Shown: positions 1,024 through 50,488, numbered from the stretch's first letter. The stretch: DNA of 64,000 nt from Alphaproteobacteria bacterium (GCA_051010635.1 JBPCVJ010000002.1:14848-78847); one strand, 5' to 3'. Made by a program: numbers and translations. The notes: generated by a model not told the origin, from the letters alone.

Positions 1024-1830
1024 TTATAAAATTTGCAAAAATAAACCAATCCCCACAATAATCGCCAAGCCGATTCGCCACCAAGCAAATAGAATTAATG
1101 TGTGGCTTTGTAAATAATGCACCAGCCATTTAACCGCCATAAAGGCAGTTATGAATGAAACGGCAAAACCGCTTAACAATACCCCAATATCATTGTTGGC
1201 TAACAATGCCGAACCATGTTGCCATATCTTAAAAATTGACGCCGCCGATAAAGTTATCACCCCAAGCAAAAATGAAAATTCAATCGCCCCCGCCATTGAT
1301 AAACCCACCCACATCCCGCCTAACATAGTGGCAAGGCTGCGGCTAACGCCGGGCCACATAGCAAAACATTGTATCAAACCTATCACCAATGATTGTTGCC
1401 AAGTCATATTATCTATTGTGCCTTTTTTGATATGATAATTTTTGGGCAATGATAAAATAACCACCCCGCCAACAAACCACGCCACCACGACTGGTGCCAA
1501 ACCAAATAGATGTTCTTCAATTTTTTTATCAAATAATAAACCTATCACCGCGGCGGGCAAAAATGCCACCAATAAATTTTTTAATAATTTCAACCCCTTG
1601 CGGTCAGAATGAAAAACCCCTGTCAATAATTGTAAAAAACGATGTTTGTAAATTGCCAATACCGCCAATATAGCGCCACCTTGAATGGCAATAATATAAG
1701 CATTGTTGATAGCAGACGAATCAATACCCAATAGCCTTTGGGTGAGAATAAGATGCCCAGTGGAACTCACTGGCAAATATTCGGTTATACCCTCGACCAC
1801 ACCCAATAGGATAGATTGAAAATAATCCAT
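1024..1830 (-). CDS. uppP: Undecaprenyl-diphosphatase (BacA/UppP)
   Basis: MDYFQSILLGVVEGITEYLPVSSTGHL is the N-terminal signature of UppP and the protein is multi-TM. Start chosen at the internal MDYF Met (ATG complement at 1828-1830); the ORF could extend to 1872. Confidence 0.85.
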   Translation of the reverse strand: MDYFQSILLGVVEGITEYLPVSSTGHLILTQRLLGIDSSAINNAYIIAIQGGAILAVLAIYKHRFLQLLTGVFHSDRKGLKLLKNLLVAFLPAAVIGLLFDKKIEEHLFGLAPVVVAWFVGGVVILSLPKNYHIKKGTIDNMTWQQSLVIGLIQCFAMWPGVSRSLATMLGGMWVGLSMAGAIEFSFLLGVITLSAASIFKIWQHGSALLANNDIGVLLSGFAVSFITAFMAVKWLVHYLQSHTLILFAWWRIGLAIIVGIGLFLQIL

Positions 1831-1898
1831 AAAATAGCCTCTACCCATAAAACGATTCGTAAATCCCAGCAATCAAAAAAATAATACCCCTTAAACCA

Positions 1899-1975
1899 TG
1901 GCGTTCCCGACAGGATTCGAACCTGTGACCTTAGGATTAGGAATCCTACGCTCTATCCAGCTGAGCTACGGGAAC
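1899..1975 (-). tRNA. tRNA-Arg (anticodon CCT)
   Basis: Reverse complement GTTCCCGTAGCTCAGCTGGATAGAGCG-TAGGA-TTCCTAA-TCCTA-AGGtCACAGGTTCGAATCCTGT-CGGGAAC-G-CCA forms a cloverleaf: 7-bp acceptor stem, D-loop AGCTCAGCTGGATAGAGC, anticodon loop TTCCTAA, T-loop GGTTCGAATCC, encoded CCA. Confidence 0.9.
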
Positions 1976-2616: not shown

Positions 2617-4383
2617 TCACACCAAAGTTTTTCCTGCCTTGTCAATAGCCTCTTCCCCCTCCACCATCGGCCCCAACAACATTTCATTATGTGGCTTACC
2701 CGATGGTATCATAGGATAACAATTTTCCATTGGGTCAATACAAACATCCACCATCACTGGTCCATCATATAAAAGCATTTTATCAATTATCGTATCCACA
2801 TCTTTTGGTTTTTCCACACGCAAACCCAACCAGCCAAAACTCTCTGCCAATTTAACAAAATCGGGCAAAGAATCAGAATAACTTTCTGAATAACGCCCAC
2901 CATGCAACAATTCTTGCCACTGACGCACCATACCCAAATATTCATTATTAAGAATAAAAATTTTAATCGGCAAACGATATTGTTTGGCGGTTGCCATCTC
3001 TTGCATATTCATCAAAATAGAACCTTCGCCCGCTATATCAATCACCAATTTATCGGGGTTACCAAGTTGTGCCCCTATCGCCGCTGGCATACCATAACCC
3101 ATCGTGCCAAGTCCGCCCGATGTAAGCCAACGATTCGGTTTCTCAAAATGGATATATTGTGCCGCCCACATTTGATGCTGACCCACCTCGGTTGAAATAA
3201 TATAATCACGCGATTTTATTTTTTGTTGTAGGCGTTCTAAAGCATATTGCGGCTTGATAACCTCATCGCTGTTTTTATAATTGAGACATTTTTTACTACG
3301 CCAATCATTTATATTTTGCCACCATTGGCTAAGGTCTGCCTGTTTGGTTGTTTGTGAAAGTGTTTTTAATGTATCACGCAAAGCCAAAAGTGCCGCCTCG
3401 CAATCGGCAAGAATGGTCATATCCACCTCAACCGTTTTATTAAAACTACTACTATCAATATCAATATGAATTTTTTGACTATGGGGCGAAAAATCATCCA
3501 ACTTACCAGTGATTCTATCATCAAACCTTGCCCCCACGCATAACATCACATCGCAATCATGCATCGCCCAATTAGCTTCATAAGTGCCATGCATACCCAA
3601 CATACCCAAAAAATTTTTATCACTGGCAGGAAAAGCCCCAAGCCCCATCAAAGTCAAGGTTACGGGAAAATTTCCCATCGCCACAATGTCTTTCAATAAA
3701 TTAAATCCATGCCCGCCTGAATTGATAAGCCCACCGCCACCATAGATGATAGGTTTTTTTGCCGCCCATAATATTTCGGCAAGTTTTTTTATTTTATGAC
3801 CATCGGGTTTGGTTTGTGGCTGATAACTGGGGTGCGGTTTATCCTTAAAAGATTTATAATCGGTGGCGGCAAATTGCACATCTTTGGGAATATCAATCAA
3901 AACCGGTCCTGGTCGCCCAGCGGTTGCCACATAAAAAGCCTGATGAATAACCCGTGATAGATTTGTAAGGTCCTTCACCAAATAATTATGTTTGGTGCAA
4001 GAACGGGTGATGCCCGTGGTATCGCATTCTTGAAAAGCATCGGTGCCGATAAGATGCGTTGGCACCTGACCCGAAATACACACTATCGGTATTGAATCCA
4101 TCAAAGCATCGGTTAAACCTGTGATGGCATTGGTAGCGCCCGGTCCCGATGTAACCAATAAAATACCGGGTTTGCCTGTGGATCTAGCATAACCCTCAGC
4201 CGCATGGGCGGCACCGCCCTCTTGCCTCACCAAAATATGGCGAATATGATTTTGTTGAAACAGCTCATCATAAATCGGTAACACTGCCCCCCCCGGATAG
4301 CCAAACACGGTATCAACCCCTTGCTCTTTTAAAACTTGTAGCAAAATCTGCGCACCAGTTAATTGAATTTTATCAGCGGTCAT
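2617..4383 (-). CDS. ilvB: Acetolactate synthase large (catalytic) subunit
   Basis: TPP-enzyme motifs (GYPGGAVLPIYD, ThDP-binding GLGTMGYGMPAAIGA.. NNEYLGMVRQWQ). Start at MTADKIQLTGAQ (ATG complement at 4381-4383). Confidence 0.9.
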   Translation of the reverse strand: MTADKIQLTGAQILLQVLKEQGVDTVFGYPGGAVLPIYDELFQQNHIRHILVRQEGGAAHAAEGYARSTGKPGILLVTSGPGATNAITGLTDALMDSIPIVCISGQVPTHLIGTDAFQECDTTGITRSCTKHNYLVKDLTNLSRVIHQAFYVATAGRPGPVLIDIPKDVQFAATDYKSFKDKPHPSYQPQTKPDGHKIKKLAEILWAAKKPIIYGGGGLINSGGHGFNLLKDIVAMGNFPVTLTLMGLGAFPASDKNFLGMLGMHGTYEANWAMHDCDVMLCVGARFDDRITGKLDDFSPHSQKIHIDIDSSSFNKTVEVDMTILADCEAALLALRDTLKTLSQTTKQADLSQWWQNINDWRSKKCLNYKNSDEVIKPQYALERLQQKIKSRDYIISTEVGQHQMWAAQYIHFEKPNRWLTSGGLGTMGYGMPAAIGAQLGNPDKLVIDIAGEGSILMNMQEMATAKQYRLPIKIFILNNEYLGMVRQWQELLHGGRYSESYSDSLPDFVKLAESFGWLGLRVEKPKDVDTIIDKMLLYDGPVMVDVCIDPMENCYPMIPSGKPHNEMLLGPMVEGEEAIDKAGKTLV

Positions 4384-4470
4384 TTTTTTTCTTTCAATAA
4401 AACAAATACTCACAACAGATGAACATGTCAAGGTTGCGATAATTGATAAATTATTTTATAGGCTTGATAT

Positions 4471-5334
4471 ATGAAAAATTTAATCACCATGTTACGCCCA
4501 CACCATTGGGTTAAGAATCTTTTGGTTTTTACGATTTTGGTTGCCGCCAAACAGGCTTTTAACATTGAATTGCTTTGGCAAAATATCATTGTTTTTTTTC
4601 TATTTTGCCTATCTGCATCAAGCGGTTATATTATCAATGATGTGCTGGATAAAAAAAATGATATGCGGCACCCATCAAAAAAATTTCGCCCGATCGCATC
4701 GGGCAAGGTTTCTATATCCATAGCCTTCATCACGACTTTTATTTTATTATTGCTGATGGCATGTTTATCATTGGTATTTTTTTCACCAATGGTTTTATAT
4801 TTGCTGTTTGGTTATTTTCTATTGGCAGTTTTTTATTCCCTCTACTTAAAAAAATTACCGATACTTGACCTGATGATGCTTTCTTTATTTTATTTTTGGC
4901 GGGTGTGGGTGGGTAGCGAATCTGCAAACATACCATTAAGTTTTTGGCTTATCATTTTTACATTGTTTTTATTTTTTAGCCTATCTTGCCTGAAACGATA
5001 TGTTGAATTACAAAAATCAAAAACCAACCGAGAATATAAAAATATCGGTGGGCGTGGCTATTTGCCAAATGATGATATATTTGTCATGTTGATTGGTATA
5101 GCTTCATCTTTTGCGGCATTGGTGGTTTTGTCTTTATATTTTCATGAAATCAATTATTATTTTTCTTATATCTATATTATCATATTATTCCTTTGGCTGA
5201 TGCGGCTTTGGCTATTGAGTTATCGCAATATCATGTATGATGACCCGCTGGTATTTGCCATCAAGGATAAATGGTCGCTGATATTATTTTTCTTTGCTGG
5301 TGTTTTTATCATCATCGATACGCTGTTGATATAA
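4471..5334 (+). CDS. UbiA-family polyprenyl-phosphate 5-phosphoribosyltransferase (DPPR-synthase, Rv3806c-like)
   Basis: N-terminus RPHHWVKNLLVFTILVAA matches the Rv3806c motif RPRQWVKNVLVLAAPLAA. YIINDVLDKKNDMRHPSKKFRPIASGKVS matches YLVNDVRDVEADREHPTKRFRPIAAGVV, including the Asp-rich NDxxDxxxD. The 287-aa protein has about 8 TM segments. Confidence 0.8.
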   Translation: MKNLITMLRPHHWVKNLLVFTILVAAKQAFNIELLWQNIIVFFLFCLSASSGYIINDVLDKKNDMRHPSKKFRPIASGKVSISIAFITTFILLLLMACLSLVFFSPMVLYLLFGYFLLAVFYSLYLKKLPILDLMMLSLFYFWRVWVGSESANIPLSFWLIIFTLFLFFSLSCLKRYVELQKSKTNREYKNIGGRGYLPNDDIFVMLIGIASSFAALVVLSLYFHEINYYFSYIYIIILFLWLMRLWLLSYRNIMYDDPLVFAIKDKWSLILFFFAGVFIIIDTLLI

Positions 5335-5349
5335 ATTTTATAAAATTTT

Positions 5350-7102
5350 ATGAAACATATACAACATTTAAAAAAATATCTTCTAGCTAATAAAATAGCT
5401 AATTATATTTTTTCTTATCGCCTTTACATATTATTTATATTGTTGGTGGTGGCGTGTTTTTATTCTTTTTATAAAAATTCATTCCATATTGTCAAACCAC
5501 ATGCCATGGCAAGCTATCAAAAAAAGGTGGAGGCAATGGTTCTTAGCTATCTGGTTGCTGATGAATATTCTATTGATACCCATAACAAGTGGGGGTTTCT
5601 TATGCAGGACCATTCTTATTATAATCATCTCATCATACCAGAAAATCTTTCTATGCATAATATTTGGATGAATAATAAAAAACGCGAATCAATAACATTG
5701 AGGGTAAAATCTTATCAACCCATAGATTATCTATTACCCAGCTACACTCACCCAAAACCCCATACCCTTGTAAAATTAGAATTGGATAAAAATAGTGCCT
5801 TGCCCATAGATGGTCGTTTTAATTATGGAAAAAATAATTATGGTTATAATGGTAGAGATTTATTTATTAATAAAAAATCACCCCCCCCCCCCCCTCAAAA
5901 CCATCATTAGGGCGGTTGAAATAATTGGCGATAAAACTTATATCACCGTTGCCTTACCATTGGATAAATTATCAGCCATCAATCAAAATAATTTTACCAT
6001 TACACTATCTGGCGAACCCATCACTGCAGATAATATTAAAACATTTGGCTTTTGGCCCTATTTCAGTGCCATAGGCGGACAAAGCTATATTTTTTCTTGG
6101 CTTTACAAACATACCGATAACAAAGATATTAAAACATTATGGAAAATCACTGCCCTGTTATCAGCCATTGGCTTGGTTAGTTTAACATTTTTATATTATC
6201 GTTCCAATATCTTTCCCAAGGGATTTTCAATCGCATTTTTTGTCAGTATATTTTTTTCTACCGCCTTTACCCTATATGCTAGAAATCCTTACTGGATACC
6301 ATTCTTATGGTTTTTGCCAATCATATTTGCATTGCTTTATGTCAAGGCAAAATCTATCAAACAACAGAGGATAACTTTATTATTATTATATTTTGCCTTT
6401 CTATTAAAATGTATGACCAGCAGTTATGAATTTCTTAGCCCCATTGTTTTGATGATGGCGGCACCTGCCAGTTATTTATTTTTTGTAAGTAACAACTATA
6501 AAGATAAAATTGCAAATGGTAAAAAATTTCTTATGATATTTTTTATAACATTTTTAGCTTTTGTAACAACCATTTTTATTCATGCCTATATGGTAGGTGA
6601 AATGATATTGCATCAAAATATCATTGAGGGATTCAAATATCTCTATAATGAAAGATTCCGAGTTAGAGTTATAAATCTTTCAGGCTCAGATGACATATTT
6701 CAGCTTCATTCTTATAGTCAACCTAGCCACGAAGTATCTTATCTATCGGTATTAAAAACTTATATTTTTGATAGATGGTATTATAACAATATTATTTGGG
6801 GTATATCGGGGAAATGGTTTCCATGGTTAATTTTTTTAACTGGTTTGATGATCATATCTAATGATTTTATACCCCTAACCCAACGCAAAAGAAAAACCTA
6901 TAGTGCCTTATTTTTATCATTTGTTTTGGTGGCACCATCTTGGTATATTTTGGTAAAACCTTCAGCCTATAATCAGCAACATATATATTATATGGCATGG
7001 TATTTTGGATTCATCGCGGCATTATTTTATATTATAGCCAGCCACTTAAACATCTATAGAAAAATAATTTTTTCTTATGGCAAAATGAAACTTGATAGAT
7101 AA
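5350..7102 (+). pseudogene. GT-C-like multi-pass membrane glycosyltransferase, disrupted by a +1 frameshift in a C14 tract (phase-variable or pseudogene); paralog of the 14079-15878 gene
   Basis: ORF 5350-5910 (frame 1) ends ..KKSPPPPPQNHH*. ORF 5810-7102 (frame 2) continues ..HPPPPLKTII..NNFTITLSG..KTLWKITALLSAIGLVSLTFLYYRSNIFPKGF. The two pieces align collinearly with the N- and C-terminal parts of the intact 599-aa paralog; removing one C (or adding two) fuses them. Confidence 0.75.
5881..5894 (+). repeat. Homopolymeric C14 tract inside the coding sequence (slipped-strand mispairing site)
   Basis: Fourteen consecutive C from 5881 to 5894, read directly. The homologous position in the paralog (14748-14753) has only C6. 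Confidence 0.9.
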
Positions 7103-7125
7103 AATTTTTTTTATATTTTATCTAT
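7094..7125. terminator. Weak AT-rich inverted repeat between convergent genes (possible bidirectional terminator)
   Basis: atagataaaat (7095-7105), a 9-nt loop, then attttatctat (7115-7125). It overlaps both stop codons. The stem is almost entirely A/T, so stability is low. Confidence 0.2.
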
Positions 7126-8580
7126 AAATTCTGTGCCATATTTTTTGGCTATCGCCATAATGGTGGCTTGGGGGTTGCAACCCATAGCGGTTGGCACTTG
7201 CGACCCATCGGCAATATAAAAATTATCATAACCCCATACCAAACCTGTCTGGTCGGTTATACCCATCTGGCGATTACCGCTTGGCGGGCAAGACCCCATT
7301 AAATGGATAGACATCAAATTATAATTTTCGGTTCGAGAAGAATCTTTTTTTACATCTGCCATATTATGCCACCCCCGATGCCCAGCAATATCGGGCATAA
7401 CTTTTTTGGCACCATATGCAAACATAATTTCAGCCAAATACCCCATACCTTTTTTTAAATTAGCAAAATCAACCATCGCCAATTTATAGTTAATCAACGG
7501 GCTATCAAGCATTGGCAAAAAATGAAACCTACCTTTGGCGGTGGGCTTTATCATAACATAATAGGATCCAACATAATCCATATCCTGTAAAAATTCTGAT
7601 GCATTGTCATAATTATTTGCCAATGCCATACCTACAAAACCTCTGGTAAAAATAGAACCACCAAGCCGAATATCTGGCATAAATTCAGAAACAAAAGCCC
7701 CTGGCGCCATGGAAGCAGCCGTTTGAATTTTTTTAGGAAACAAACCAAACATTTTTAGCGTTGGGTGTAATTGAAAATTATCAAATGGCAAATTTGACCT
7801 TACGCCAGATTTTTTTAATATCATTGGCGTGTGGATAGAGCCAGCACAACAAAATACATATTTGAATTCAATCACCAGCTTTTTTGATGTATTATTTTTT
7901 TTCACATCGCAATAGGCACGCACAGCTTTTTTACCCTTAAAGCTAAGACGATTCACACGGCAACCCAATATCACCCTCATACCCCTTTTCAATGCCAATG
8001 GCAAAAGGCTGTTTGACATTGAGCGTTTGCCCTTTATCGGGTTGCCATATATTCTATCATCTTTTTCATCGGGCTTCATAGCAATCGATAAATATTCAGC
8101 GGCATAATTTAATTTTGCGGCACCTTTGATTAAAACATCGCTATCGGCATAATATTTTTTATGATAACTCACATGCATCTGTGAAAAACTTTTATCCCAA
8201 TAGCGAAGCAAATTTTTATAAGACCATGAATCATCTAATTGATAGGCACTTTGCCAATTTTTTACCACCTGTTCATGAGGGCGTTGAAATATTGCCGAAT
8301 TAATTTCGGTTGAACCGCCAAATGTTTTGCCTTCGGCAAATGCGATATTAGGTTTGCCCAATGTTGCGGTTAAACCCGAATTACGCCACAATTTGATAAA
8401 AACCTCTTCGGGTGTTTTTAATTGTTTGATGGGGTATTTTTCCCCCTCCTCCACCATCAAAACATCCATACCATGTTGGGTGGCAATATCGGCTATGGTT
8501 GCCCCGCCAGCTCCAGAACCTATAATCAACAGGTCAGCTTTATAAATTTTATCAGTGGCATTAACATTGATGAAGGTCAT
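7111..8580 (-). CDS. GMC-family FAD-dependent oxidoreductase
   Basis: N-terminal Rossmann DLLIIGSGAGGATIA..VLMVEEG; 489 aa with GMC-type C-terminal region (..GSCPPSGNRQMGITDQTGLVWGYDNFYIADGSQVPT..). Confidence 0.8.
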   Translation of the reverse strand: MTFINVNATDKIYKADLLIIGSGAGGATIADIATQHGMDVLMVEEGEKYPIKQLKTPEEVFIKLWRNSGLTATLGKPNIAFAEGKTFGGSTEINSAIFQRPHEQVVKNWQSAYQLDDSWSYKNLLRYWDKSFSQMHVSYHKKYYADSDVLIKGAAKLNYAAEYLSIAMKPDEKDDRIYGNPIKGKRSMSNSLLPLALKRGMRVILGCRVNRLSFKGKKAVRAYCDVKKNNTSKKLVIEFKYVFCCAGSIHTPMILKKSGVRSNLPFDNFQLHPTLKMFGLFPKKIQTAASMAPGAFVSEFMPDIRLGGSIFTRGFVGMALANNYDNASEFLQDMDYVGSYYVMIKPTAKGRFHFLPMLDSPLINYKLAMVDFANLKKGMGYLAEIMFAYGAKKVMPDIAGHRGWHNMADVKKDSSRTENYNLMSIHLMGSCPPSGNRQMGITDQTGLVWGYDNFYIADGSQVPTAMGCNPQATIMAIAKKYGTEFIDKI

Positions 8581-8849
8581 TTTTTATCCCCCTCAAATAA
8601 AACCAAAAAAGTAAGCGAACGATAAACCCTTATCAATAATTGAAAAAAATGAATATGTTTGCGTAAAATTTTATCCAATTTCAAAAACAAAAATGGTAAA
8701 TAACATAAAGTCAAAATAACAATAGCCCATTTCACATGAAAGGGAGCATTTTTTAATGATTGTTTAACAAATAAAATATGGGGTGGCTTGACCGCTTTGC
8801 GAAAATGAAGCGGCAATGAATGATGTGTCATCAAACGCACGAATATCAT
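8577..8849 (-). CDS. Small hypothetical membrane protein (90 aa) packed between the SDR and GMC genes
   Basis: The ORF exactly fills the gap: its start is 7 nt after the SDR stop and its stop overlaps the GMC start. One predicted TM (WAIVILTLCYLPFLFLKL). No recognisable family. Confidence 0.35.
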   Translation of the reverse strand: MIFVRLMTHHSLPLHFRKAVKPPHILFVKQSLKNAPFHVKWAIVILTLCYLPFLFLKLDKILRKHIHFFQLLIRVYRSLTFLVLFEGDKK

Positions 8850-8855
8850 ATTGAT

Positions 8856-9896
8856 TTAAAAAATTTTTGATGCTTGCTTGGCAAGGGATAATATCCCGCG
8901 CGGCACTGGCTTGCGATGGGTGGATTGATGGGTTTTATCAAAAGAAGAATAGTTTTTTAAATACCAGCGATAGCTATCAACCATCATATCAACATTGCCA
9001 TATTTCGGTTGCCAGCCAAGTGCTTTGGTTATATGGGTAATATCATAATAAAAATCCTTGTGATAACTTAAATAATGCCATGGACCCAAGGGGGATAATT
9101 TTAACTTATCTGCCGTCAATAAAACCAATTTAGCCAAACCAATCGGTAAAGAAATAACTTTTGATTTTGCACCAACTTTTTTAATAAAAGCTTCTAGGTC
9201 ATGCCTTAAACAGCCAAATGGCAAACCACCAACATTAAATAAACCAGATTTTTTTAACAGGGATGCCCTTACACTCACATTCGCCAAATCTTCAACCTGC
9301 ACAAATTGAAACAAATTATTACCCTTGCCAATGATAAAGATATTGGCATCGTCTTTTATCCAATCAAATAATATTTCAAATATACCAAGCCGTTCCTTGC
9401 CAATGACGGTGCGTGGTCTTATTAAACAGGCTGGCAAACCATCTTTCATCGCCTGTTGCACCAATTTATCAGCATCGGCTTTGGCTTTGCCATATTGTTC
9501 TATCGGTTGCAATGGCGCATTGGGCAAAATAGGCATGGTTTTGGCTAAACCAAAAATTGCCGATGATGACATATTACAAAGCATTTTGATATTATGCTTG
9601 AAACCCATATCAATAATATTTTTTGTGCCCACCACATTGACTTCATGAAATTTTTTGCCCGCTTTCGCCAATGGCACCAAAGCGGCATTGTGGTGAATAT
9701 GGGTAACATGTTTCATCACCTTATCGACTGCCGCCTTATCGGTTACATCCAAATAGGCAAAATGATCCTTGAATTCATCATTTTGCCAAATATCGGTTAG
9801 TAATATATTTTGTTTTTTTGCCAAAAGTTGCCTAGCAATATGGCTACCCACAAAACCCGAACCGCCGGTTATCAAATGTAAATCATTATTTGCCAT
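8856..9896 (-). CDS. NAD-dependent epimerase/dehydratase (extended SDR)
   Basis: N-terminal LITGGSGFVGSHIARQLL Rossmann motif; 346 aa with extended-SDR layout. Confidence 0.8.
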   Translation of the reverse strand: MANNDLHLITGGSGFVGSHIARQLLAKKQNILLTDIWQNDEFKDHFAYLDVTDKAAVDKVMKHVTHIHHNAALVPLAKAGKKFHEVNVVGTKNIIDMGFKHNIKMLCNMSSSAIFGLAKTMPILPNAPLQPIEQYGKAKADADKLVQQAMKDGLPACLIRPRTVIGKERLGIFEILFDWIKDDANIFIIGKGNNLFQFVQVEDLANVSVRASLLKKSGLFNVGGLPFGCLRHDLEAFIKKVGAKSKVISLPIGLAKLVLLTADKLKLSPLGPWHYLSYHKDFYYDITHITKALGWQPKYGNVDMMVDSYRWYLKNYSSFDKTHQSTHRKPVPRGILSLAKQASKIF

Positions 9897-10050
9897 GGTT
9901 ATACCCCATCAATATTTTAATCATTTTATCTATGGTTATAAATATCATCGCCATTCATCTGTTTGTTGGTCTTATTAGCCAATATCATAGCGATTGGCAA
10001 ATAGATAATTATCTTGTTATTTTAATAAAAATTATTTATCAACTAACATC

Positions 10051-10677
10051 ATGACGCAAAAAATTTTTCTAAAATGTTTGCTTTATATTGGCTATTATAG
10101 CTGTGGGTTATTTTTAGGATTCCTATTTTATATATTTGGAATGGCATTAGGTATGTTTGATAATGATTTGCTATTTTACCGCGGCATGAAAGTTATTTTG
10201 GTAAGCCAAATATTTTTGCTTGGCTTGTTATTCTTTTTTGATAAAATCATCAACCAGCACCAAAATACCAAAATAAATCAGCTATTAACATTGGCACCAC
10301 TGAAACCCCATATCATAGCCATTGTGCTTGTAGGGGCAAGTATCAATGTGTGTTTTCATTCGGTTGTGCCCACGATCATTGATAGATCCATCAGCGTTTT
10401 TTTATTAGGGTTCACCCATAATTTAGAAAAAAATAATCAAACAGCTAATATTGATAATTGGCGTCAAGGGTTTGATAAAATCTATGCCGATGATTATCAA
10501 GCCATCGAGCGGCGACTAGAAGAACAGATAAGAAGCGGTAATGTTATAACAACATCAAATGGCACAATTATGCTTACCAACAAAGGCAAACAATTTCTTA
10601 TAGCGGCGGCTTACCTTAACAAATTATTGGGGATTGATAATAAACATGTTAACCCGCCCGTTGATAAATTAAATTAG
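10051..10677 (+). CDS. Hypothetical membrane protein (about 4 TM N-terminal half, soluble C-terminal half)
   Basis: 208-aa ORF directly upstream of the GT-C-like gene (23-nt gap). Hydrophobic segments LLYIGYYSCGLFLGFLFYIFGMALGMF, VILVSQIFLLGLLFFF, IIAIVLVGASINVCF. No PAP2 or GtrA motif recognised. Confidence 0.45.
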   Translation: MTQKIFLKCLLYIGYYSCGLFLGFLFYIFGMALGMFDNDLLFYRGMKVILVSQIFLLGLLFFFDKIINQHQNTKINQLLTLAPLKPHIIAIVLVGASINVCFHSVVPTIIDRSISVFLLGFTHNLEKNNQTANIDNWRQGFDKIYADDYQAIERRLEEQIRSGNVITTSNGTIMLTNKGKQFLIAAAYLNKLLGIDNKHVNPPVDKLN

Positions 10678-10699
10678 ACCAAATATATTATCGCCCACC

Positions 10700-12508
10700 A
10701 TGCTACATCAGGTCAATCATCTTAAAACCAGCCCCATCTATATTACCTTTACTGCCATAACGATAATATTATATGGTTTGGTTATTTTCTTTGCCAAATA
10801 TGGGTTTGATATACTTGATGAGGGGTGGTATCTTTTCACTATCACAGACCCTGATTTTACCAAATCACGGTTTCATTATGGTTTGGGGTATCATTATCTT
10901 TTTCTTTTATTAAATGAAAATATTATTCATTTAAGAATTGCCAATATCATTATTTTTTTCATATTGGCATTCTTATTAGCAAAAGAAATTCTTTTTTCTT
11001 ATTTCAAATCATTCAAATTACGCCCTTATCAATTTTTTATTTTATGCGTGGCAATGGCATCCATATCATTATTATATTTTGTTATCATTTACACACCCAG
11101 TTATAATTCTCTTGCTATCAAAGCCCTCATCATTATAGCCATAGGTCTTATCAATATCCTTAATCACCCTACGCCAAAATTAAAAAAATGGTGGCAACAA
11201 AATAGGTGGGGTGCATTAATTTTAGGATTTGGCATGTTTTTACTTTTTCTTGCCAAACCATCATCATTTTTAGCTGTTTGTTTTTTTCTATTGATGATAT
11301 TTTTATTTTATAAATCATCTAGACTGCTCTTTATAATAGCTGGCATCGCAAGCAGTTCACTATTTTCCATTTATATTATTTTATATTTTGAAGCCGATAT
11401 TATCAAATATATTGAAGAAACAAAAAACACTATCATCGCCCTTCATAAGTTAGATCGCCATTATACATGGATCACTCAATTAAACCTATTGCGGGGGATT
11501 TACATACCCAACATAGCATATATTTTCCTTGCCCTGCCCCTCATATATAAAATAGCACTTACCTATCGCCCATCAAGCTCATGGCTTATCATTCGTTTTA
11601 TCAATCGGTATATTGATATATTTATTATGATATGTTTGTCATTGGGTATAGGTTTGGTAAAACCTTCTCATGTATATGCTTTACAAACTTTTTTTGCCAT
11701 CATGATAGTTTATTGGGCTATTTTGATAAATATATTTCACAATAATAAATTCATTGACCAATTATTAAACCCCAAGATATTTGCCATTATATTATTTTGT
11801 TTTTTATCACCCTATCTATTTGCCTTTGGCACAGCCAATATTATATTGTTTCAAATGTGCTTAGGCGCAATTTTATTTGCATTATGCGCTATTTTATTAT
11901 TATCATTTTTACCAAACAAGCCAAATTATCTTTATATCGGTATTTTATTTTCACAATTATTAACTTTTTATTGCACCACCTATTATATCCACCACCCTTA
12001 TCGCCATATTTCTTTTTTTTCTAACCAATTGGCACCATTAAAATTTTATGATAGCCATAACAAACCCTACTACCTCACCGTATCACAAAATTATAAAAAA
12101 CTAATAGAAAAAAGTCGGTCAATTTTTTATAATAATGGTTTTGCCGCAGGAACGCCCATTATAGATGCAACAGGTGTAGCAACCGGAATTATATTTGCGC
12201 TTGATGCCACCCCATTGGGGCGATATTTTTTAATTACCGAAACTGCTATCAAACATGATATTAAACAAAATCAATGCGATAGAATTGCAAAATCTTGGCT
12301 GATGACCATGCCAAGCCGCACAAATGACCTTTGGGGCGTTGTGCCATTACGCCCCAAAGAAATATTAAAAACCTATCATGCCGACCTAAAAACCGATTAT
12401 GATTTTATAGGCAATATCACGGCTTTAAATTTTCGCACCAAAGGCAAAACCGAAACCATCAATTTCTATCGCCCCAAACCTATACTAAAAACCAAATGTA
12501 AAAAATAA
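10700..12508 (+). CDS. GT-C-like polytopic membrane glycosyltransferase (ArnT/PMT-like architecture)
   Basis: 602 aa with more than 10 TM segments. TM1 is followed immediately by the acidic motif FDILDEGWY, the position of the catalytic DE/DD in GT-C enzymes. Lys-rich C-terminal tail. Confidence 0.5.
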   Translation: MLHQVNHLKTSPIYITFTAITIILYGLVIFFAKYGFDILDEGWYLFTITDPDFTKSRFHYGLGYHYLFLLLNENIIHLRIANIIIFFILAFLLAKEILFSYFKSFKLRPYQFFILCVAMASISLLYFVIIYTPSYNSLAIKALIIIAIGLINILNHPTPKLKKWWQQNRWGALILGFGMFLLFLAKPSSFLAVCFFLLMIFLFYKSSRLLFIIAGIASSSLFSIYIILYFEADIIKYIEETKNTIIALHKLDRHYTWITQLNLLRGIYIPNIAYIFLALPLIYKIALTYRPSSSWLIIRFINRYIDIFIMICLSLGIGLVKPSHVYALQTFFAIMIVYWAILINIFHNNKFIDQLLNPKIFAIILFCFLSPYLFAFGTANIILFQMCLGAILFALCAILLLSFLPNKPNYLYIGILFSQLLTFYCTTYYIHHPYRHISFFSNQLAPLKFYDSHNKPYYLTVSQNYKKLIEKSRSIFYNNGFAAGTPIIDATGVATGIIFALDATPLGRYFLITETAIKHDIKQNQCDRIAKSWLMTMPSRTNDLWGVVPLRPKEILKTYHADLKTDYDFIGNITALNFRTKGKTETINFYRPKPILKTKCKK

Positions 12509-12535
12509 AATCAATGTTCAATTTATCCCATGCGA

Positions 12536-13966
12536 TTAACATTCTGGCAGGGCAACCGAAACTTTACTGGCAAGCCCACCCTCGGAGGTTTCTTTGTATT
12601 TATGCATCATATCCTTCCCCGTTTCCATCATGGTTTCAATCACCTTATCCAAACTCACCAGATGCTCGCCATTGCCATGTAAGGCAAGGCGTGAAGCATT
12701 GATAGCCTTCACCGCACCCATGGTGTTGCGTTCAATGCATGGCACCTGCACCAAACCCTTTATCGGATCACAAGTTAGACCAAGATTATGCTCCATACCT
12801 ATTTCGGCAGCATTTTCTACCTGCTCAACCGAACCACCCATGGCTGCCGTCAATCCCGCAGCCGCCATAGAACAAGCCACACCAACCTCCCCTTGGCAAC
12901 CCACTTCGGCTGCCGATATGGAAGCATTTTTTTTATAAAGCATACCTATTGCCGCAGCGGTTAGCATAAAAATTCGCATATTTTTTATATCCTTACCACC
13001 TGGCACAAATCTATGGTAATAAGCCATCACAGCAGGAATAACCCCTGCCGCACCATTGGTCGGGGCGGTAACCACACGACCACCAGCGGCATTTTCTTCA
13101 TTCACTGCTAGGGCAAACACATTCACCCAATCCATGGTTTTCATAGGAATTTCATCAAGCTCCACATCGCCCAATTTCATTTTTATTTCTTGATTCGATT
13201 TTTCTAAATTATCGGCTATTTGTTTGGCACGCCGCCGAATATTAAGCCCACCGGGCAAAATTCCTTCTTGTTGTATGCCACGCTCAATAGAATTGTTCAT
13301 CGCCTGCCAAATATTATCTATAGATTTTTCAATATCTTCTTGCTTACGCCACACCAATTCATTTTCCATCAATAGTTCGGCAATGGTAATATTTTTTTTC
13401 TTGGTGATGCTTAACAATTCTTCGGCACTGTGAAAAATATTGGGCAAAACCACATTGCTTGATGCAGCGGCATTGCTAACGCCGCGGTTAAATTCTTCAT
13501 CGCTTAATACAAAACCTCCCCCCACCGAATAATATGTGTCTTGATAAATCAATTTGCCATTTTTATCGGTGGCAATAAATTCCATCGTATTGGAGTGTTT
13601 TTCTTTAAATTCGCCATAACGAAAATCCAAATGTTTTTCATAAATAAACTCAATTTCATGTTGCTGATGAAGCAAAAGTTTTTTGGATTTTTTGACATGT
13701 TGAATCTTATTTTCAACCAAATTAGGGTCGGTTTCATCTGGTTTTTCGCCCATCAAACCAAGCACAATGGCACGGTCGGTGGCATGCCCCAACCCCGTCA
13801 TAGCCAACGAGCCATATAGTTTCACCGTCAATTCAGCCACATGGTTTAATTTTTTTTGGGTTACCAAATCAGCCACATACCGATTTGCTGCCACCATAGG
13901 CCCCACCGTGTGCGAACTAGACGGCCCAATACCAATTTTAAATAAATCAAAAACCGATAGATGCAT
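12536..13966 (-). CDS. sdaA: L-serine dehydratase, single-chain Fe-S type
   Basis: [24 protein letters not shown] is the canonical SdaA N-terminus, and Cys-containing beta-domain motifs are present. Start at ATG complement 13964-13966. Confidence 0.9.
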
Positions 13967-14078
13967 AATGATACATTCTACCACAAAAAGCCACGATTAT
14001 CAAAAAATTATTGTATTTATATTAAAAATAATTTAGAAAAAACAAGCAAACTATCATTTTTTTACCATCATTCGCATC

Positions 14079-15878
14079 ATGCATATCAAATTAAAACCAT
14101 TATGGTCCTATCGCCATATTGCCATATTTTTGCTTTTGCTAACGGCTTGCTTTTTTTCTTTTTATAAAAATAGCTTTCGCATCGTAAAAAATAATTATCT
14201 TTTTTACCAAACACCCAGCTATGATGAAATGTTGGTCATTGGTAGAATTTTGGTTGATGAATATAACTTAAAAAAAATAATTACGGTGTATAATTTAGAT
14301 AAAATTGATAAACACAATACCAACAGATATGTTGGAAAAGAAGGGGCGACAAAATATAATTTGCTGTGGCCAGATGTGCCTTACCATTTAAGACTTTCTT
14401 ATATTTTTCAATTGCCACAAAATATATTACAAAATAACCAGCCGATTGACGATATAACATTATCACCCATTGCCTATGAAACAAAATGGTGGAAAAAACC
14501 TAACATCATATTTAATAACATATTTAAATTAAGTGATGATAAAATATATTTAACTAGAATAAAGGTCAAAAAAGATAAACTCAATTTTAAACAACATTAT
14601 CAATATAGGAATCAGCCAAGCGAAACAGCCTATAGACATGATTACAGCTACAGCGGTAGAACATTGCTTATCGGCAATTACAAAACCATGGTAAGGCAAG
14701 TTTTATATAGCCCTGCCTCAGACCTTGCCTATATCCACACCACCATACCCCCCGATGAATTACAAAAAATAAAAAAAAATAATTCCACTATCACCCTATC
14801 GGGCAATGTAATGGAAAAAGAAATATTACAAAACAATGTGCGTTTCGCCAGTTATATCAGCACCGTGGGATTACATGGTTATATTTTTTCTTGGCTGTTT
14901 CAACACAGCGATAAAAACCTTGAAACATTGTGGAAAATCACATCATTATTATCGGCATTGGTTATCGTTGGTTTAACATTTTTATATTATCGCAGTCATA
15001 TTTTTCCCAAAGGTTTTGCCATTAGTTTTTTTGCAAGTTTATTCTTATCGGTTATTTTTACCGCCTATGCTAGAGATCTTTATTGGCTACCCTTCACATG
15101 GTTCTTACCATCTATCTTTGCTATCCTCTATATCAAGGCAGAAAACCATTGGCATAGAATTATTTATATATTGCTGACCTATCTTGCCTTTACCTTAAAA
15201 AATATCACCACTGGCTATGAGATAACATCCAGCGTCATATTAATGGCGGCAGCACCAGCGGCTTATTTGCTATTAACCAGCCAATCACTCAATCAAAAAA
15301 TTATCGCCCTCAAAAAATTTTTTATGATATGTTTTCTAGGCGTAGCAGGTTTTTTCACCAGCCTATTGATACTTGCCTACATCAGGGGCGATTCTAATAT
15401 AATTGATGGGTTAAAATCCATTTATGATGTCAATATAACCAAACGCATTATCAATAAAAGCGATGAGAATATTCCTGGCTACATAAGGGATTCCTCCATA
15501 TCTTATTATGAAGTATTTAAAATATTCTTTCGCTGGAATCATGATTGGGGTTATCCCCAAACATTAAACATAATTGATTGGTTACCGATAAAATTTGTTC
15601 ATTTATTTTTCTTATCTTTTTTTATCACTCTATCCAGCTGGGTGGTGCCATTCTTACAACACAAAAAATATATCTATAACAGTCTATTTATCATATTCTT
15701 TCTTACCGCTTCATCTTATATTATCTTGGCAAAATATGATGCCTATCTACATATATTTCAAAATTTGGTTTTGTGGTATTTTGGTTTTATTGCCGCCATG
15801 TTCTATATCATTGCCAGTGGTATGATGACTTATGGCAAAATAATACTTGCCTATGGCAAAAAGAAAATAGCTGTCTGA
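14079..15878 (+). CDS. GT-C-like multi-pass membrane glycosyltransferase (intact paralog of the frameshifted 5350-7102 gene)
   Basis: 599 aa. N-terminal TM, then a conserved acidic motif (RILVDEYNL versus LVADEYSID in the paralog), then at least 10 TM segments. Long collinear identity blocks with the 5350-7102 product (e.g. ETLWKITSLLSALVIVGLTFLYYRSHIFPKGF). Confidence 0.55.
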   Translation: MHIKLKPLWSYRHIAIFLLLLTACFFSFYKNSFRIVKNNYLFYQTPSYDEMLVIGRILVDEYNLKKIITVYNLDKIDKHNTNRYVGKEGATKYNLLWPDVPYHLRLSYIFQLPQNILQNNQPIDDITLSPIAYETKWWKKPNIIFNNIFKLSDDKIYLTRIKVKKDKLNFKQHYQYRNQPSETAYRHDYSYSGRTLLIGNYKTMVRQVLYSPASDLAYIHTTIPPDELQKIKKNNSTITLSGNVMEKEILQNNVRFASYISTVGLHGYIFSWLFQHSDKNLETLWKITSLLSALVIVGLTFLYYRSHIFPKGFAISFFASLFLSVIFTAYARDLYWLPFTWFLPSIFAILYIKAENHWHRIIYILLTYLAFTLKNITTGYEITSSVILMAAAPAAYLLLTSQSLNQKIIALKKFFMICFLGVAGFFTSLLILAYIRGDSNIIDGLKSIYDVNITKRIINKSDENIPGYIRDSSISYYEVFKIFFRWNHDWGYPQTLNIIDWLPIKFVHLFFLSFFITLSSWVVPFLQHKKYIYNSLFIIFFLTASSYIILAKYDAYLHIFQNLVLWYFGFIAAMFYIIASGMMTYGKIILAYGKKKIAV

Positions 15879-15927
15879 TACTAAAAATTATTGTATTTCT
15901 AACAAGAATAATCTAAAAACACATATC

Positions 15928-16296
15928 ATGGCGAATATCCTCACCCATTTGATTAAAATTTTTGATAGTCGCTTTATCGGTAGCGACCCGCTAGGCAATC
16001 GCTATTATGAAAGACGAAAATATGACGCATGGGGGCGCAAAAAACGATTCATCATCTATATCGGCAAGGAAGATGATGCCAGCCTGTTGCCGCCCGAATA
16101 TCACGCATGGATGCATTATATCATTGATGATTTTCCCACCGCAGGGCAAACCAGCTATCGTCGTTTTTATCAAAAACCGCATAGTGCCAATCTATCGGGT
16201 AGCCGAATGGCTTATAAACCAAAACGCTCCCCTGCCACTGGCGATTACCGGTCATGGTCGCCCAACAAAATGCGTCATCATCAGCCAAAAAAATAA
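15928..16296 (+). CDS. NDUFA12-like protein (NADH:ubiquinone oxidoreductase 17.2-kDa subunit family)
   Basis: GSDPLGNRYYERRK ... RFIIYIGKEDDASLLPPEYHAWMHYIIDD matches the NDUFA12 family pattern G.NxYYE ... PPEWH.WLH..D. Confidence 0.75.
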   Translation: MANILTHLIKIFDSRFIGSDPLGNRYYERRKYDAWGRKKRFIIYIGKEDDASLLPPEYHAWMHYIIDDFPTAGQTSYRRFYQKPHSANLSGSRMAYKPKRSPATGDYRSWSPNKMRHHQPKK

Positions 16297-44990: not shown

Positions 44991-45782
44991 TTAAAAACTG
45001 GCGGTTAAAAAATAATTAACCTTAAAATTATTTTTTGACAAGGCAGTTTTTTTTAATAAAGGATTATACAAAAGCCCCGTCAAATCTTTTGGCAATAACC
45101 CTGCCAGACGACAATAACCACTCAATTCTTCGGGGCGAACAAATTGCCGATATTGATGCGTGCCTTTTGGCAAAAGATGCAAAATATATTCTGCCCCAAC
45201 AATTGCCAACAAAAAAGAATTGAGATTACGATTGATGGTTGAAAATATCACCAAGCCATCAGGTTTAACCAATTGAGCAATGTTTGCCACAAATTTTTTT
45301 CCATCCATCACATGTTCAATCACCTCCATCGCCAACACCATATCAAATGCCGCCAGATTTTTTTTATCGGCTAATAATATCTCAGGTGTTGCCACATCAA
45401 AGGTCAAACCATCATAGAATTTTTGTTTTGCCTGATAGGTGCGTGCCACCTTGATAGTGGTTGGCTCGGCATCTATACCAAGCACCACCCCCCCCCATTG
45501 ATATAAAGCCACCGATAACAACCCACCGCCACAGCCAATATCAAGAATTTTTTTGCCCGCTATACCATGACCACAATGTGCCTGCCATTGCTGTTGAATA
45601 TAATCGCACCTGATAGGATTCAATTCATGCAAAGGGCGAAACGCCCCATCGGGGCGCCACCATTCCTCAGCCATAGTTTGAAATTTTGCCAATTCATCAT
45701 CGCTGATATTATTGGTAAATGATGATGAATCGCCCTTAGCACCATATAATTTATTTTTTGTATTTTTTTTCGCCCGTGCCAT
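44991..45782 (-). CDS. ubiG: Bifunctional 3-demethylubiquinol 3-O-methyltransferase / 2-polyprenyl-6-hydroxyphenol methylase
   Basis: UbiG N-terminal region EEWWRPDGAFRPLHELNPIRCDYI and SAM motif I KILDIGCGGGLLS. Divergent from lysC, a conserved alphaproteobacterial arrangement. Confidence 0.9.
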   Translation of the reverse strand: MARAKKNTKNKLYGAKGDSSSFTNNISDDELAKFQTMAEEWWRPDGAFRPLHELNPIRCDYIQQQWQAHCGHGIAGKKILDIGCGGGLLSVALYQWGGVVLGIDAEPTTIKVARTYQAKQKFYDGLTFDVATPEILLADKKNLAAFDMVLAMEVIEHVMDGKKFVANIAQLVKPDGLVIFSTINRNLNSFLLAIVGAEYILHLLPKGTHQYRQFVRPEELSGYCRLAGLLPKDLTGLLYNPLLKKTALSKNNFKVNYFLTASF

Positions 45783-50023: not shown

Positions 50024-50382
50024 AGCCGTGGCTCGGCGATTGCAAATATGATAAATATTTGAGGAAAGTCGGGGCTTCGTTTTGGAATCCATTCCGCCTA
50101 ACTGGCGGCGGCATTGTTGGCGACGGCAATGTTAGTGAAAGTGTCACAGAAAATAACCGCCATCATGATGGTAAGGGTGAAAAGGTGGAGTAAGTGCCCA
50201 CCGCCATTTTAGCAATAGAATGGGCAAAGACAAACCAAATGGGAAGCAAGACCAAATAGGACTATCTTATAACTTTAATTCCAAAAAGTTGATAGTCGGG
50301 TTGGTCGCAAGACAATGGTGGCAACGCCATTGCTAGATGAATAATCGCCCAATACAGAACCCCGCTTATGAGCCACGGTATT
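50024..50382 (+). ncRNA. rnpB: RNase P RNA (bacterial type A)
   Basis: P1 pairing agccgtggctc (50024-) with gagccacggt (-50379); P4 signature gaggaaagtcggggcttcg; conserved aagggtgaaaaggtg and acagaaccccgcttat; U-rich tail 50390-50405. Confidence 0.85.
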
Positions 50383-50488
50383 TATTGTAACTACCTTTTT
50401 TGTTTTATCTTATAAAAAAATGTTTTTTTTATTGCAAATGGTGTTAAAAATGCATTAGCTTAACTATAATAGATTTATAAAAAACATC

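Follow-up and report, generated by a model that had tools for sequence, protein, structure and literature searches.

A Candidate Lipid-Linked Pentofuranose Glycosylation Locus with a GMC-Family Oxidoreductase and a Probable Poly-C Phase Switch in an Uncultured Alphaproteobacterium

A 64,000-nucleotide stretch of DNA from an uncultured alphaproteobacterium (GCA_051010635.1, JBPCVJ010000002.1:14848-78847; hereafter the window, from whose first letter all positions are counted) carries at 4471–15878 a cluster of genes for redox enzymes and membrane proteins. The plus strand encodes a UbiA-family protein, the split membrane protein memA1, a small membrane protein (p208), and the large polytopic proteins memB and memA2; the minus strand encodes an extended short-chain dehydrogenase/reductase (SDR), a 90-residue one-helix protein, and a FAD-dependent oxidoreductase of the GMC family. 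The first-pass annotation of this span gave coordinates and motifs that agree with the open reading frames (ORFs), but left unmentioned p208 and a housekeeping gene, sdaA, that lies inside the span. It proposed that the locus builds a lipid-linked pentofuranose donor and transfers the sugar outside the cytoplasm, which, on the basis of homology and conserved context, is the best-supported reading; we put at roughly 70% the probability that the locus belongs with the pentofuranose glycosylation systems that Kelly et al. (2024) described. Because the addition of pentofuranose by a polyprenyl-phosphate phosphoribosyltransferase (PPPRS), an epimerase, and a GT-C glycosyltransferase in Gram-negative bacteria is a published concept (Kelly et al., 2024; PMC11127046), the general idea was already established, and the gain is incremental.

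The UbiA-family protein (4471–5334, plus strand; 287 residues) is assigned by homology to the decaprenyl-phosphate phosphoribosyltransferase (DPPRS)/PPPRS type, because of the ranking of NCBIfam models, a structure match restricted to Rv3806c, and invariant catalytic motifs. The top NCBIfam model is PRK08238 (274 bits, E 1.8e-81), which stands for the UbiA portion of HAD-UbiA proteins; three models of decaprenyl-phosphate phosphoribosyltransferases come next (E 8e-42 to 8e-31), and the quinone, heme, and chlorophyll prenyltransferase models (UbiA, CtaB, ChlG) reach E 2e-9 or worse. The curated equivalog cut-offs are not attained (143 bits versus 207 for NF008978, and 274 versus 351 for PRK08238, the HAD half of the latter model being absent from the window protein), and the Pfam match (E 1.2e-21) is to the general UbiA model only. 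Searching the sequences of solved structures returned solely chains 8j8j and 8j8k of the Mycobacterium tuberculosis DPPRS, Rv3806c (the better being 8j8j, E 1.7e-23), in line with the resemblance to Rv3806c at diagnostic positions noted in the first-pass annotation. The motifs R9-P-H-H-W-V-K-N, N56-D-xx-D60-xxx-D64, and K175-R-Y-V-E179 are present; across 22 homologs, Asn56, Asp57, Asp60, Asp64, and Arg176 are invariant and Glu179 is nearly so. The corresponding loop II (N-D-xx-D-xxx-D) and loop IV (R-xx-E) motifs are essential in Rv3806c and in ORF15 of Citrobacter youngae, and HAD-UbiA fusions of the PRK08238 family have been shown biochemically to produce polyprenyl-phosphate-ribofuranose (PMC11127046). 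Most relatives at about 40% identity carry an N-terminal HAD phosphoribose-phosphatase domain, which is absent from the window protein, the gene for which starts 40 nucleotides from ilvI. Looking up the exact sequence of the window UbiA retrieved no contig.

The divergent operon (9896–7111), read in the first-pass annotation as an extended SDR, a small membrane protein, and a FAD-dependent GMC enzyme, is borne out by Pfam and motif analyses. The GMC protein (7111–8580, minus strand; 489 residues), a proposed oxidase of lipid-linked ribose, matches GMC_oxred_N (E 1.9e-33) and GMC_oxred_C (E 4e-14), and retains a GSGAGG motif and the His/Asn catalytic pair (His426, Asn469). It is far from every characterized GMC enzyme, its best match among solved structures being a choline dehydrogenase (E 1.5e-20). 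The SDR (8856–9896, minus strand; 346 residues, NAD(P)-dependent), the proposed ketoreductase half of an epimerase pair, belongs to the Epimerase/3Beta_HSD type and carries TGGSGFVG (GxxGxxG) at position 10, Ser110–112, and YGKAK at 135 (Y135-xxx-K). Neither enzyme has a signal peptide. Among their nearest solved relatives are cholesterol oxidase and a sterol 3-dehydrogenase, whose targets are hydroxyl groups of lipids; a lipid-linked substrate would be consistent with this, although the point is only suggestive. The parallel drawn in the first-pass annotation with DprE1 and DprE2 does not extend to the protein families: the oxidase has GMC_oxred_N/C rather than the FAD_binding_4/VAO domains of DprE1, and the reductase is an extended SDR rather than a classical SDR of about 250 residues such as DprE2. 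Epimerization by the GMC/SDR pair is accordingly proposed by analogy, and its product may be arabinose, xylose, or another sugar.

Directly upstream of the GMC gene lies the gene for the 90-residue protein (8577–8849, minus strand), which has one predicted transmembrane (TM) helix and the motifs PFHV(K/R)W and R-V-Y-R-S-L..L..F-E. In metagenomic loci, the ORF immediately upstream of GMC shares with it P-F/A-H-V/I-R, a TM helix, and R-V/L-Y/L-R-S-L..L..F/Y-E/D; the shared motifs and position imply that this protein is a real, dedicated partner of the GMC clade. The possibility that the ORF is spurious was rejected, since position and motif are kept across lineages. A Pfam search at a lenient threshold gave no match for the partner, nor for p208 or memA.

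Comparison with other genomes and metagenomes supports a conserved unit. In the relative L083 the order is NDUFA12, sdaA, memA (35–38% identity to the window), p201 (a p208 homolog, 36%), SDR (69%), an 89-residue protein (51%), GMC (64%), UbiA (36%), ilvI, ilvH, an acyltransferase, and BacA; ilvI and sdaA are 85% identical to those of the window, and the locus genes only 35–69%. The unit thus stays together between the same flanks in L083, and dozens of unrelated metagenomic contigs share its UbiA, GMC, and SDR core. Scanning metagenomes with GMC as the seed yielded 57 loci (L084–L140), many on short contigs, with an SDR1-type gene in 47, a second SDR in 42, UbiA in 36, and SMR in 26. The GMC and SDR1-type genes are nearly always adjacent, and ORF clustering revealed a stereotyped order of SDR, SMR or GtrA, small partner, GMC, UbiA, SDR2, and a DUF212 divergent PAP2 phosphatase; the module of GMC, small partner, SDR, and DPPRS-type UbiA is present in most of these loci. 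Their UbiA proteins are of the DPPRS type, and one (L130) exceeds the NCBIfam equivalog cut-off (213 versus 207). Of 80 genome loci whose UbiA proteins are nearest to that of the window, in contrast, 47 contain a DprE1-like FAD_binding_4 gene and only one contains GMC (L040, from a betaproteobacterial metagenome-assembled genome, where L040_522 had no Pfam match at the lenient threshold). In seven loci of the DprE1 type (Devosia, Brucella, and Rhizobium types), the DprE1-like gene is accompanied by an extended SDR 28–32% identical to that of the window. GMC and DprE1-like oxidases thus alternate beside the same kind of UbiA.

Some of these loci have features of their own. Canonical GMC modules (e.g. 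L102 9037–13177, L111 3185–3616, L084 7280–7705, and L112 11205–12884) contain a second SDR, DUF212, and SMR or GtrA-like genes, and four GMC loci add a B12-binding radical-SAM enzyme; the combination of two SDRs with an oxidase hints at double epimerization or further tailoring. The seven DprE1-type loci (L002 10001–17458, L004, L017, L051, L052, L080, and L081, from Devosia, Brucella (Ochrobactrum), and Rhizobium) encode a HAD-UbiA, a DprE1-like protein, an EamA-like protein of 140 residues, an extended SDR, and an aminotransferase of class III; a TM protein of about 560 residues is also encoded in most of them. From their gene content they look like a pathway to a lipid-linked amino-pentofuranose via transamination of a keto intermediate.

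The protein p208 (10051–10677, plus strand; 208 residues) has three predicted TM helices and a soluble C-terminal domain, with the motifs F-Y-R-G, L-D-R-S-I-S-V, A-I-x-R-R-x-x-E-Q-x-x-S-G-N, and L-T-x-K-G. Members of its family are found in L083 (11842–12447; p201), L001 (10025–10750), L098 (6200–6721), and L117 (8071–8625), always adjoining a DPPRS-type UbiA or its module, which marks it as a conserved, presumably accessory, protein. The idea that p208 substitutes for the missing phosphatase or flippase was considered and rejected: in L098 and L117 it co-occurs with HAD, DUF212, and SMR, and therefore does not replace them.

The first-pass annotation likened all three large polytopic proteins to GT-C enzymes because each carries an acidic motif after the first TM helix. 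The motifs are present; however, the proteins form two unrelated families, memB not being related to memA, and a GT-C fold is indicated for memB only. memB (10700–12508, plus strand; 602 residues) appeared to be an orphan in a word-index search, which returned self or one homolog owing to saturation with low-complexity sequence, but this was rejected when an exhaustive HMMER search gave 996 cluster representatives, nearly all of about 600–620 residues and matching end to end. The family is without a Pfam model, one of 50 members touching YfhO, a GT-C family, and its profile had no match among the sequences of solved structures even at E 10. In the motif D40-E-G, Asp40 and Glu41 are invariant among 50 homologs, and Asp37 is conserved in 90% or more of them. 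Modeling with AlphaFold2 from the 50 homologs gave a confident structure (pLDDT 85, pTM 0.90) that has exclusively GT-C enzymes as structural neighbors, with ArnT and AftA at the top of the Foldseek ranking and AftB and EmbA also represented, which argues that memB is a GT-C glycosyltransferase, the fold assignment being that of the model. Compared with ArnT, the undecaprenyl-phosphate-L-Ara4N:lipid A transferase (GT-C_A), memB has 7–10% sequence identity, no match to Pfam PMT_2/ArnT, and a different C-terminal α/β domain. It lies outside the conserved unit.

memA1 (5350–7102, plus strand) and memA2 (14079–15878, plus strand; 599 residues) are paralogs with 44% identity, and memA is the polytopic family kept with the unit in L083. 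In memA2, the first TM helix is followed by a non-TM, probably periplasmic, region of about 250 residues and then by about 9–10 TM helices. The acidic motif is D60-E-Y in memA2 and D71-E-Y in the first memA1 ORF (5350–5910). The L083 ortholog has D-K-F at this site and keeps only the Asp, so that Asp60 is present in all three memA members, the next residue being Glu, Glu, and Lys (three sequences only). A word-index protein search returned self or one homolog only, low-complexity membrane sequence having filled the candidate list, and the memA profile gave no match to solved-structure sequences even at E 10. Profile-profile comparisons of memA and memB with four large TM families encoded elsewhere in related loci (TM522, f22, f18, and Dev563) were all non-significant (at most 47% probability). 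memA1 and memA2 are candidate transferases of an orphan family.

memA1 is read as two overlapping ORFs that meet at a run of 14 cytosines (5881–5894), the split being a +1 frameshift exactly at this tract. A 13-cytosine version restores an uninterrupted 583-residue reading, which includes KKSPPPPLKTIIRAV and aligns with memA2, and a 16-cytosine version likewise restores the frame, so that either length (the ON states) gives a protein of 583 or 584 residues. The tract encodes a poly-Pro insert absent from memA2 and the L083 ortholog. G/C runs of 6, 7, 8, and 9 nucleotides occur 8, 4, 2, and 1 times, respectively, in the window, followed by this single run of 14. The second-longest, a C9 run at 45488–45496 (G9 on the coding strand), is in an intact ORF for an S-adenosylmethionine-dependent methyltransferase (44991–45782, minus strand). 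Poly-G/C tracts in lipooligosaccharide and lipopolysaccharide glycosyltransferase genes of Campylobacter, Haemophilus, Neisseria, and Helicobacter are contingency loci. memA1 is similar to these genes with respect to a long G/C homopolymer within the ORF of a putative surface-modifying membrane enzyme, toggling of the frame by a one-nucleotide change, and the proximity of a constitutive paralog; it differs in that it is known from a single assembled sequence of an uncultured lineage. With one assembled tract length visible, memA1 thus has the anatomy of a probable slipped-strand phase-variable gene.

The split might instead reflect a homopolymer error in sequencing or assembly, or a decaying pseudogene. 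Homopolymer lengths are error-prone in sequencing, the sequence derives from a metagenome-assembled genome, and a single tract length is seen; we regard this explanation as a serious one, if on the doubtful side. On the other side, both halves of memA1 are otherwise intact over 583 codons, with no further stop and with the identity to the paralog noted above. The tract is an insertion missing from memA2 and the L083 ortholog and an outlier of 14 bases in a region of 35% GC, and even if its recorded length is wrong, a run of 13–16 cytosines in the gene of a surface enzyme is a classic slipped-strand substrate.

The locus is flanked by ilvI (2617–4431, minus strand) on the left and NDUFA12 (15928–16296) on the right, with sdaA, encoding a housekeeping L-serine dehydratase (12536–13984, minus strand), between memB and memA2. 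The GC content of the locus is 31–37%, compared with 40–42% for the flanking housekeeping DNA and about 39% for the window, which fits foreign origin or cassette exchange. Within 4000–16000, GC is lowest over memB and memA2, genes for membrane proteins being AT-rich anyway. Sequence comparison indicates that the site between ilvI and sdaA is a variable, mosaic, putative surface-glycan site: the UbiA proteins of the window and L083 are only 36% identical, which implies a mosaic cassette. The bacA gene for undecaprenyl-diphosphatase is two or three genes away from the locus in the window (1024–1872, minus strand) and in both relatives (L001 4536–5342 and L083 20763–21617), which may be a coincidence or a link to carrier-lipid recycling. 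Rfam has no match inside the locus and only two in the whole window, a class A RNase P RNA (50024–50384, plus strand) and a tRNA gene (1902–1975, minus strand); scans for promoters and terminators gave no useful signal, the DNA being AT-rich. The second relative, L001 (GCA_030054115.1), is labeled ‘Hydrotalea sp.’ (Bacteroidota), which is at odds with the 84–85% identity of its ilvI and sdaA to those of the alphaproteobacterial window; its bin label, or the assignment of the contig to the bin, is probably wrong.

Several observations weigh against the pentofuranose reading. In L001, the interval between ilvI and sdaA contains only a UbiA gene (57% identity) and a homolog of p208; the UbiA proteins of the window and L083 are not mutual nearest relatives; L083 lacks memB and has only one memA; and no member of the memB family occurs beside any of 139 other UbiA or GMC loci. 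In addition, no HAD, PAP2/DUF212, SMR, GtrA, or MATE homolog was found in the 64-kb window or the loci of the relatives (tblastn searches of the window, L083, and L001 with SMR, GtrA, and DUF212 queries were likewise negative), whereas related loci do carry HAD fusions or DUF212, and SMR or GtrA. The absence of memB from L083 and of its family from the other loci, the 36% identity of the UbiA proteins, the low GC, and the differing gene content of the site among relatives would suit a mosaic variable region in which memB, and perhaps the second memA copy, act on surface glycans independently, draw on other lipid-linked donors, and merely came to lie between ilvI and sdaA. We consider this rather unlikely: memB is inside the cluster, on the same strand as p208 and 23 bp downstream of it; no GtrB-type polyprenyl-phosphate-hexose synthase was noticed nearby; and the GT-C enzymes of such pathways are known to be lineage-specific and promiscuous.

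In the pentofuranose pathway that we propose for the locus, the UbiA protein would convert phosphoribosyl pyrophosphate to polyprenyl-phosphate-ribose-5-phosphate, as suggested by its family membership and intact catalytic motifs, and an unlinked phosphatase (none was found nearby) would remove the 5-phosphate. The GMC enzyme, tethered at the membrane by its 90-residue partner, may then oxidize a ring hydroxyl of polyprenyl-phosphate-ribose to a ketone, and the extended SDR may reduce the ketone from the other face to give an epimer (arabino- or xylo-furanose). This epimerase step is proposed because of the conserved gene linkage and the alternation of GMC and DprE1-like oxidases in related loci, and both reactions are placed on the cytoplasmic side because the two proteins lack signal peptides and NAD(P)H is required by the SDR. 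The donor would be flipped by an unlinked flippase, no SMR, GtrA, or MATE gene having been found in the window, and the polytopic transferases would attach the sugar to a periplasmic acceptor, memA2 as the constitutive partner of the unit and memA1 as the member switched by the poly-C tract; for memB, either this donor or a different one is conceivable.

The GMC and SDR proteins might alternatively not be an epimerase pair, but make another head group (for example a stable keto-pentose or a further oxidized or derivatized pentose), or the SDR alone might epimerize, as does ORF13 of C. youngae, with GMC serving some other function. This is conceivable given the distance of the GMC protein from characterized homologs, the two different SDRs of canonical modules, and the aminotransferase beside the oxidase in Devosia-type loci, by which keto intermediates can be diverted, and a single SDR is enough for conversion of ribose to xylose in C. 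youngae (PMC11127046). However, the near-constant adjacency of GMC and the SDR1-type gene, the established DprE1/DprE2 logic of an oxidase and a reductase acting on one hydroxyl, and the lack of an aminotransferase or other tailoring gene in the window make it quite improbable. The general Pfam match and the scores below the equivalog cut-offs might allow the UbiA homolog to be a commonplace prenyltransferase of quinones, heme, or other aromatics with unrelated neighbors, but this is effectively refuted by DPPRS models that score at least 30 orders of magnitude above the UbiA, CtaB, MenA-type, and ChlG models, by the exclusive Rv3806c match and invariant DPPRS motifs, and by the DprE1-like, GMC, or SDR genes linked to most relatives.

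The most valuable lead is the module of GMC, small partner, and SDR, the poly-C switch being secondary. We tentatively suggest, at somewhat less than even odds, that a GMC oxidase, a dedicated one-helix partner of about 90–140 residues, and an extended SDR constitute an undescribed, DprE1/DprE2-independent machine that re-tailors or epimerizes polyprenyl-phosphate-ribofuranose, occurring widely among uncultured bacteria of marine, freshwater, and soil habitats; given the second SDR of the canonical modules, it could yield unseen pentofuranoses, e.g. lyxofuranose, and here it would be coupled to a new memA transferase family that has a poly-C phase switch. DprE1 ranks among the foremost targets of tuberculosis drugs, and, to our knowledge, lipid-linked arabinofuranose is known to arise only through DprE1 with DprE2. 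If the proposal is correct, a second, unrelated oxidase family would occupy the same position, implying that the chemistry evolved twice; the enzymes would be additions to the glycoengineering toolbox; and GMC with the small partner and SDR beside a DPPRS-type UbiA would be a bioinformatic marker for as yet unknown pentofuranose-bearing glycans in uncultured bacteria. For the organism itself, the locus is probably a phase-variable surface determinant, and a fast-evolving one, since its genes have diverged from those of L083 much further than have the flanking genes.

The mycobacterial pathway (Rv3806c, Rv3807c, DprE1/DprE2, Rv3789, and Emb/Aft) is similar to that proposed here with respect to the family of the first enzyme, the oxidase and reductase logic, and transferases of GT-C fold. 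It differs in having a VAO/FAD_binding_4 oxidase (DprE1) where the locus has a GMC-fold protein, and a classical SDR of about 250 residues (DprE2) where the locus has a 346-residue extended SDR; moreover, the locus has neither a PAP2 phosphatase nor a homolog of the GtrA-family protein Rv3789, and its carrier lipid is presumably undecaprenyl. The arabinosylation of pilin in Pseudomonas aeruginosa PA7 (PPPRS, DprE1/E2 homologs, and TfpW) and of Nod factor by NoeC-type systems in Azorhizobium are Gram-negative parallels, which likewise employ an Rv3806c-type enzyme for lipid-linked pentofuranose; unlike the locus, these systems use DprE1/DprE2 homologs, and no pilin or nod genes are near the locus.

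A further close parallel is the three-component pentofuranose side-chain system of C. youngae O1/O2, comprising ORF15 (a HAD-UbiA PPPRS), ORF14 (a MATE flippase), and ORF12 (a GT-C enzyme, GT136), together with the SDR epimerase ORF13 (PMC11127046). Of these components, a PPPRS and the predicted GT-C-fold protein memB are present in the window, whereas MATE, SMR, or GtrA proteins and a separate phosphatase were not found. Both are Gram-negative systems with a DPPRS-type UbiA (for the window protein, the UbiA part of PRK08238 is the nearest family), an auxiliary redox enzyme that would alter the pentose, and a polytopic GT-C-type transferase. The window locus differs in lacking the HAD domain and a MATE/SMR/GtrA flippase, in having GMC, a small membrane partner, and an SDR in place of a single SDR, in its candidate transferases, which are of other families (the orphan memA and memB, which has no Pfam model), and in a probably phase-variable paralog. 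The text and supplement of Kelly et al. (2024) make no mention of a GMC or FAD oxidoreductase (PMC11127046), and a search of the full-text literature found no paper that links GMC enzymes with DprE1/2, UbiA, or GtrA, and no description of a GMC-type variant. Judged from sequence, the features that set this locus apart from the known systems are therefore its GMC-type oxidase, the absence of a linked phosphatase or flippase, candidate transferases of other families, and probable phase variation.

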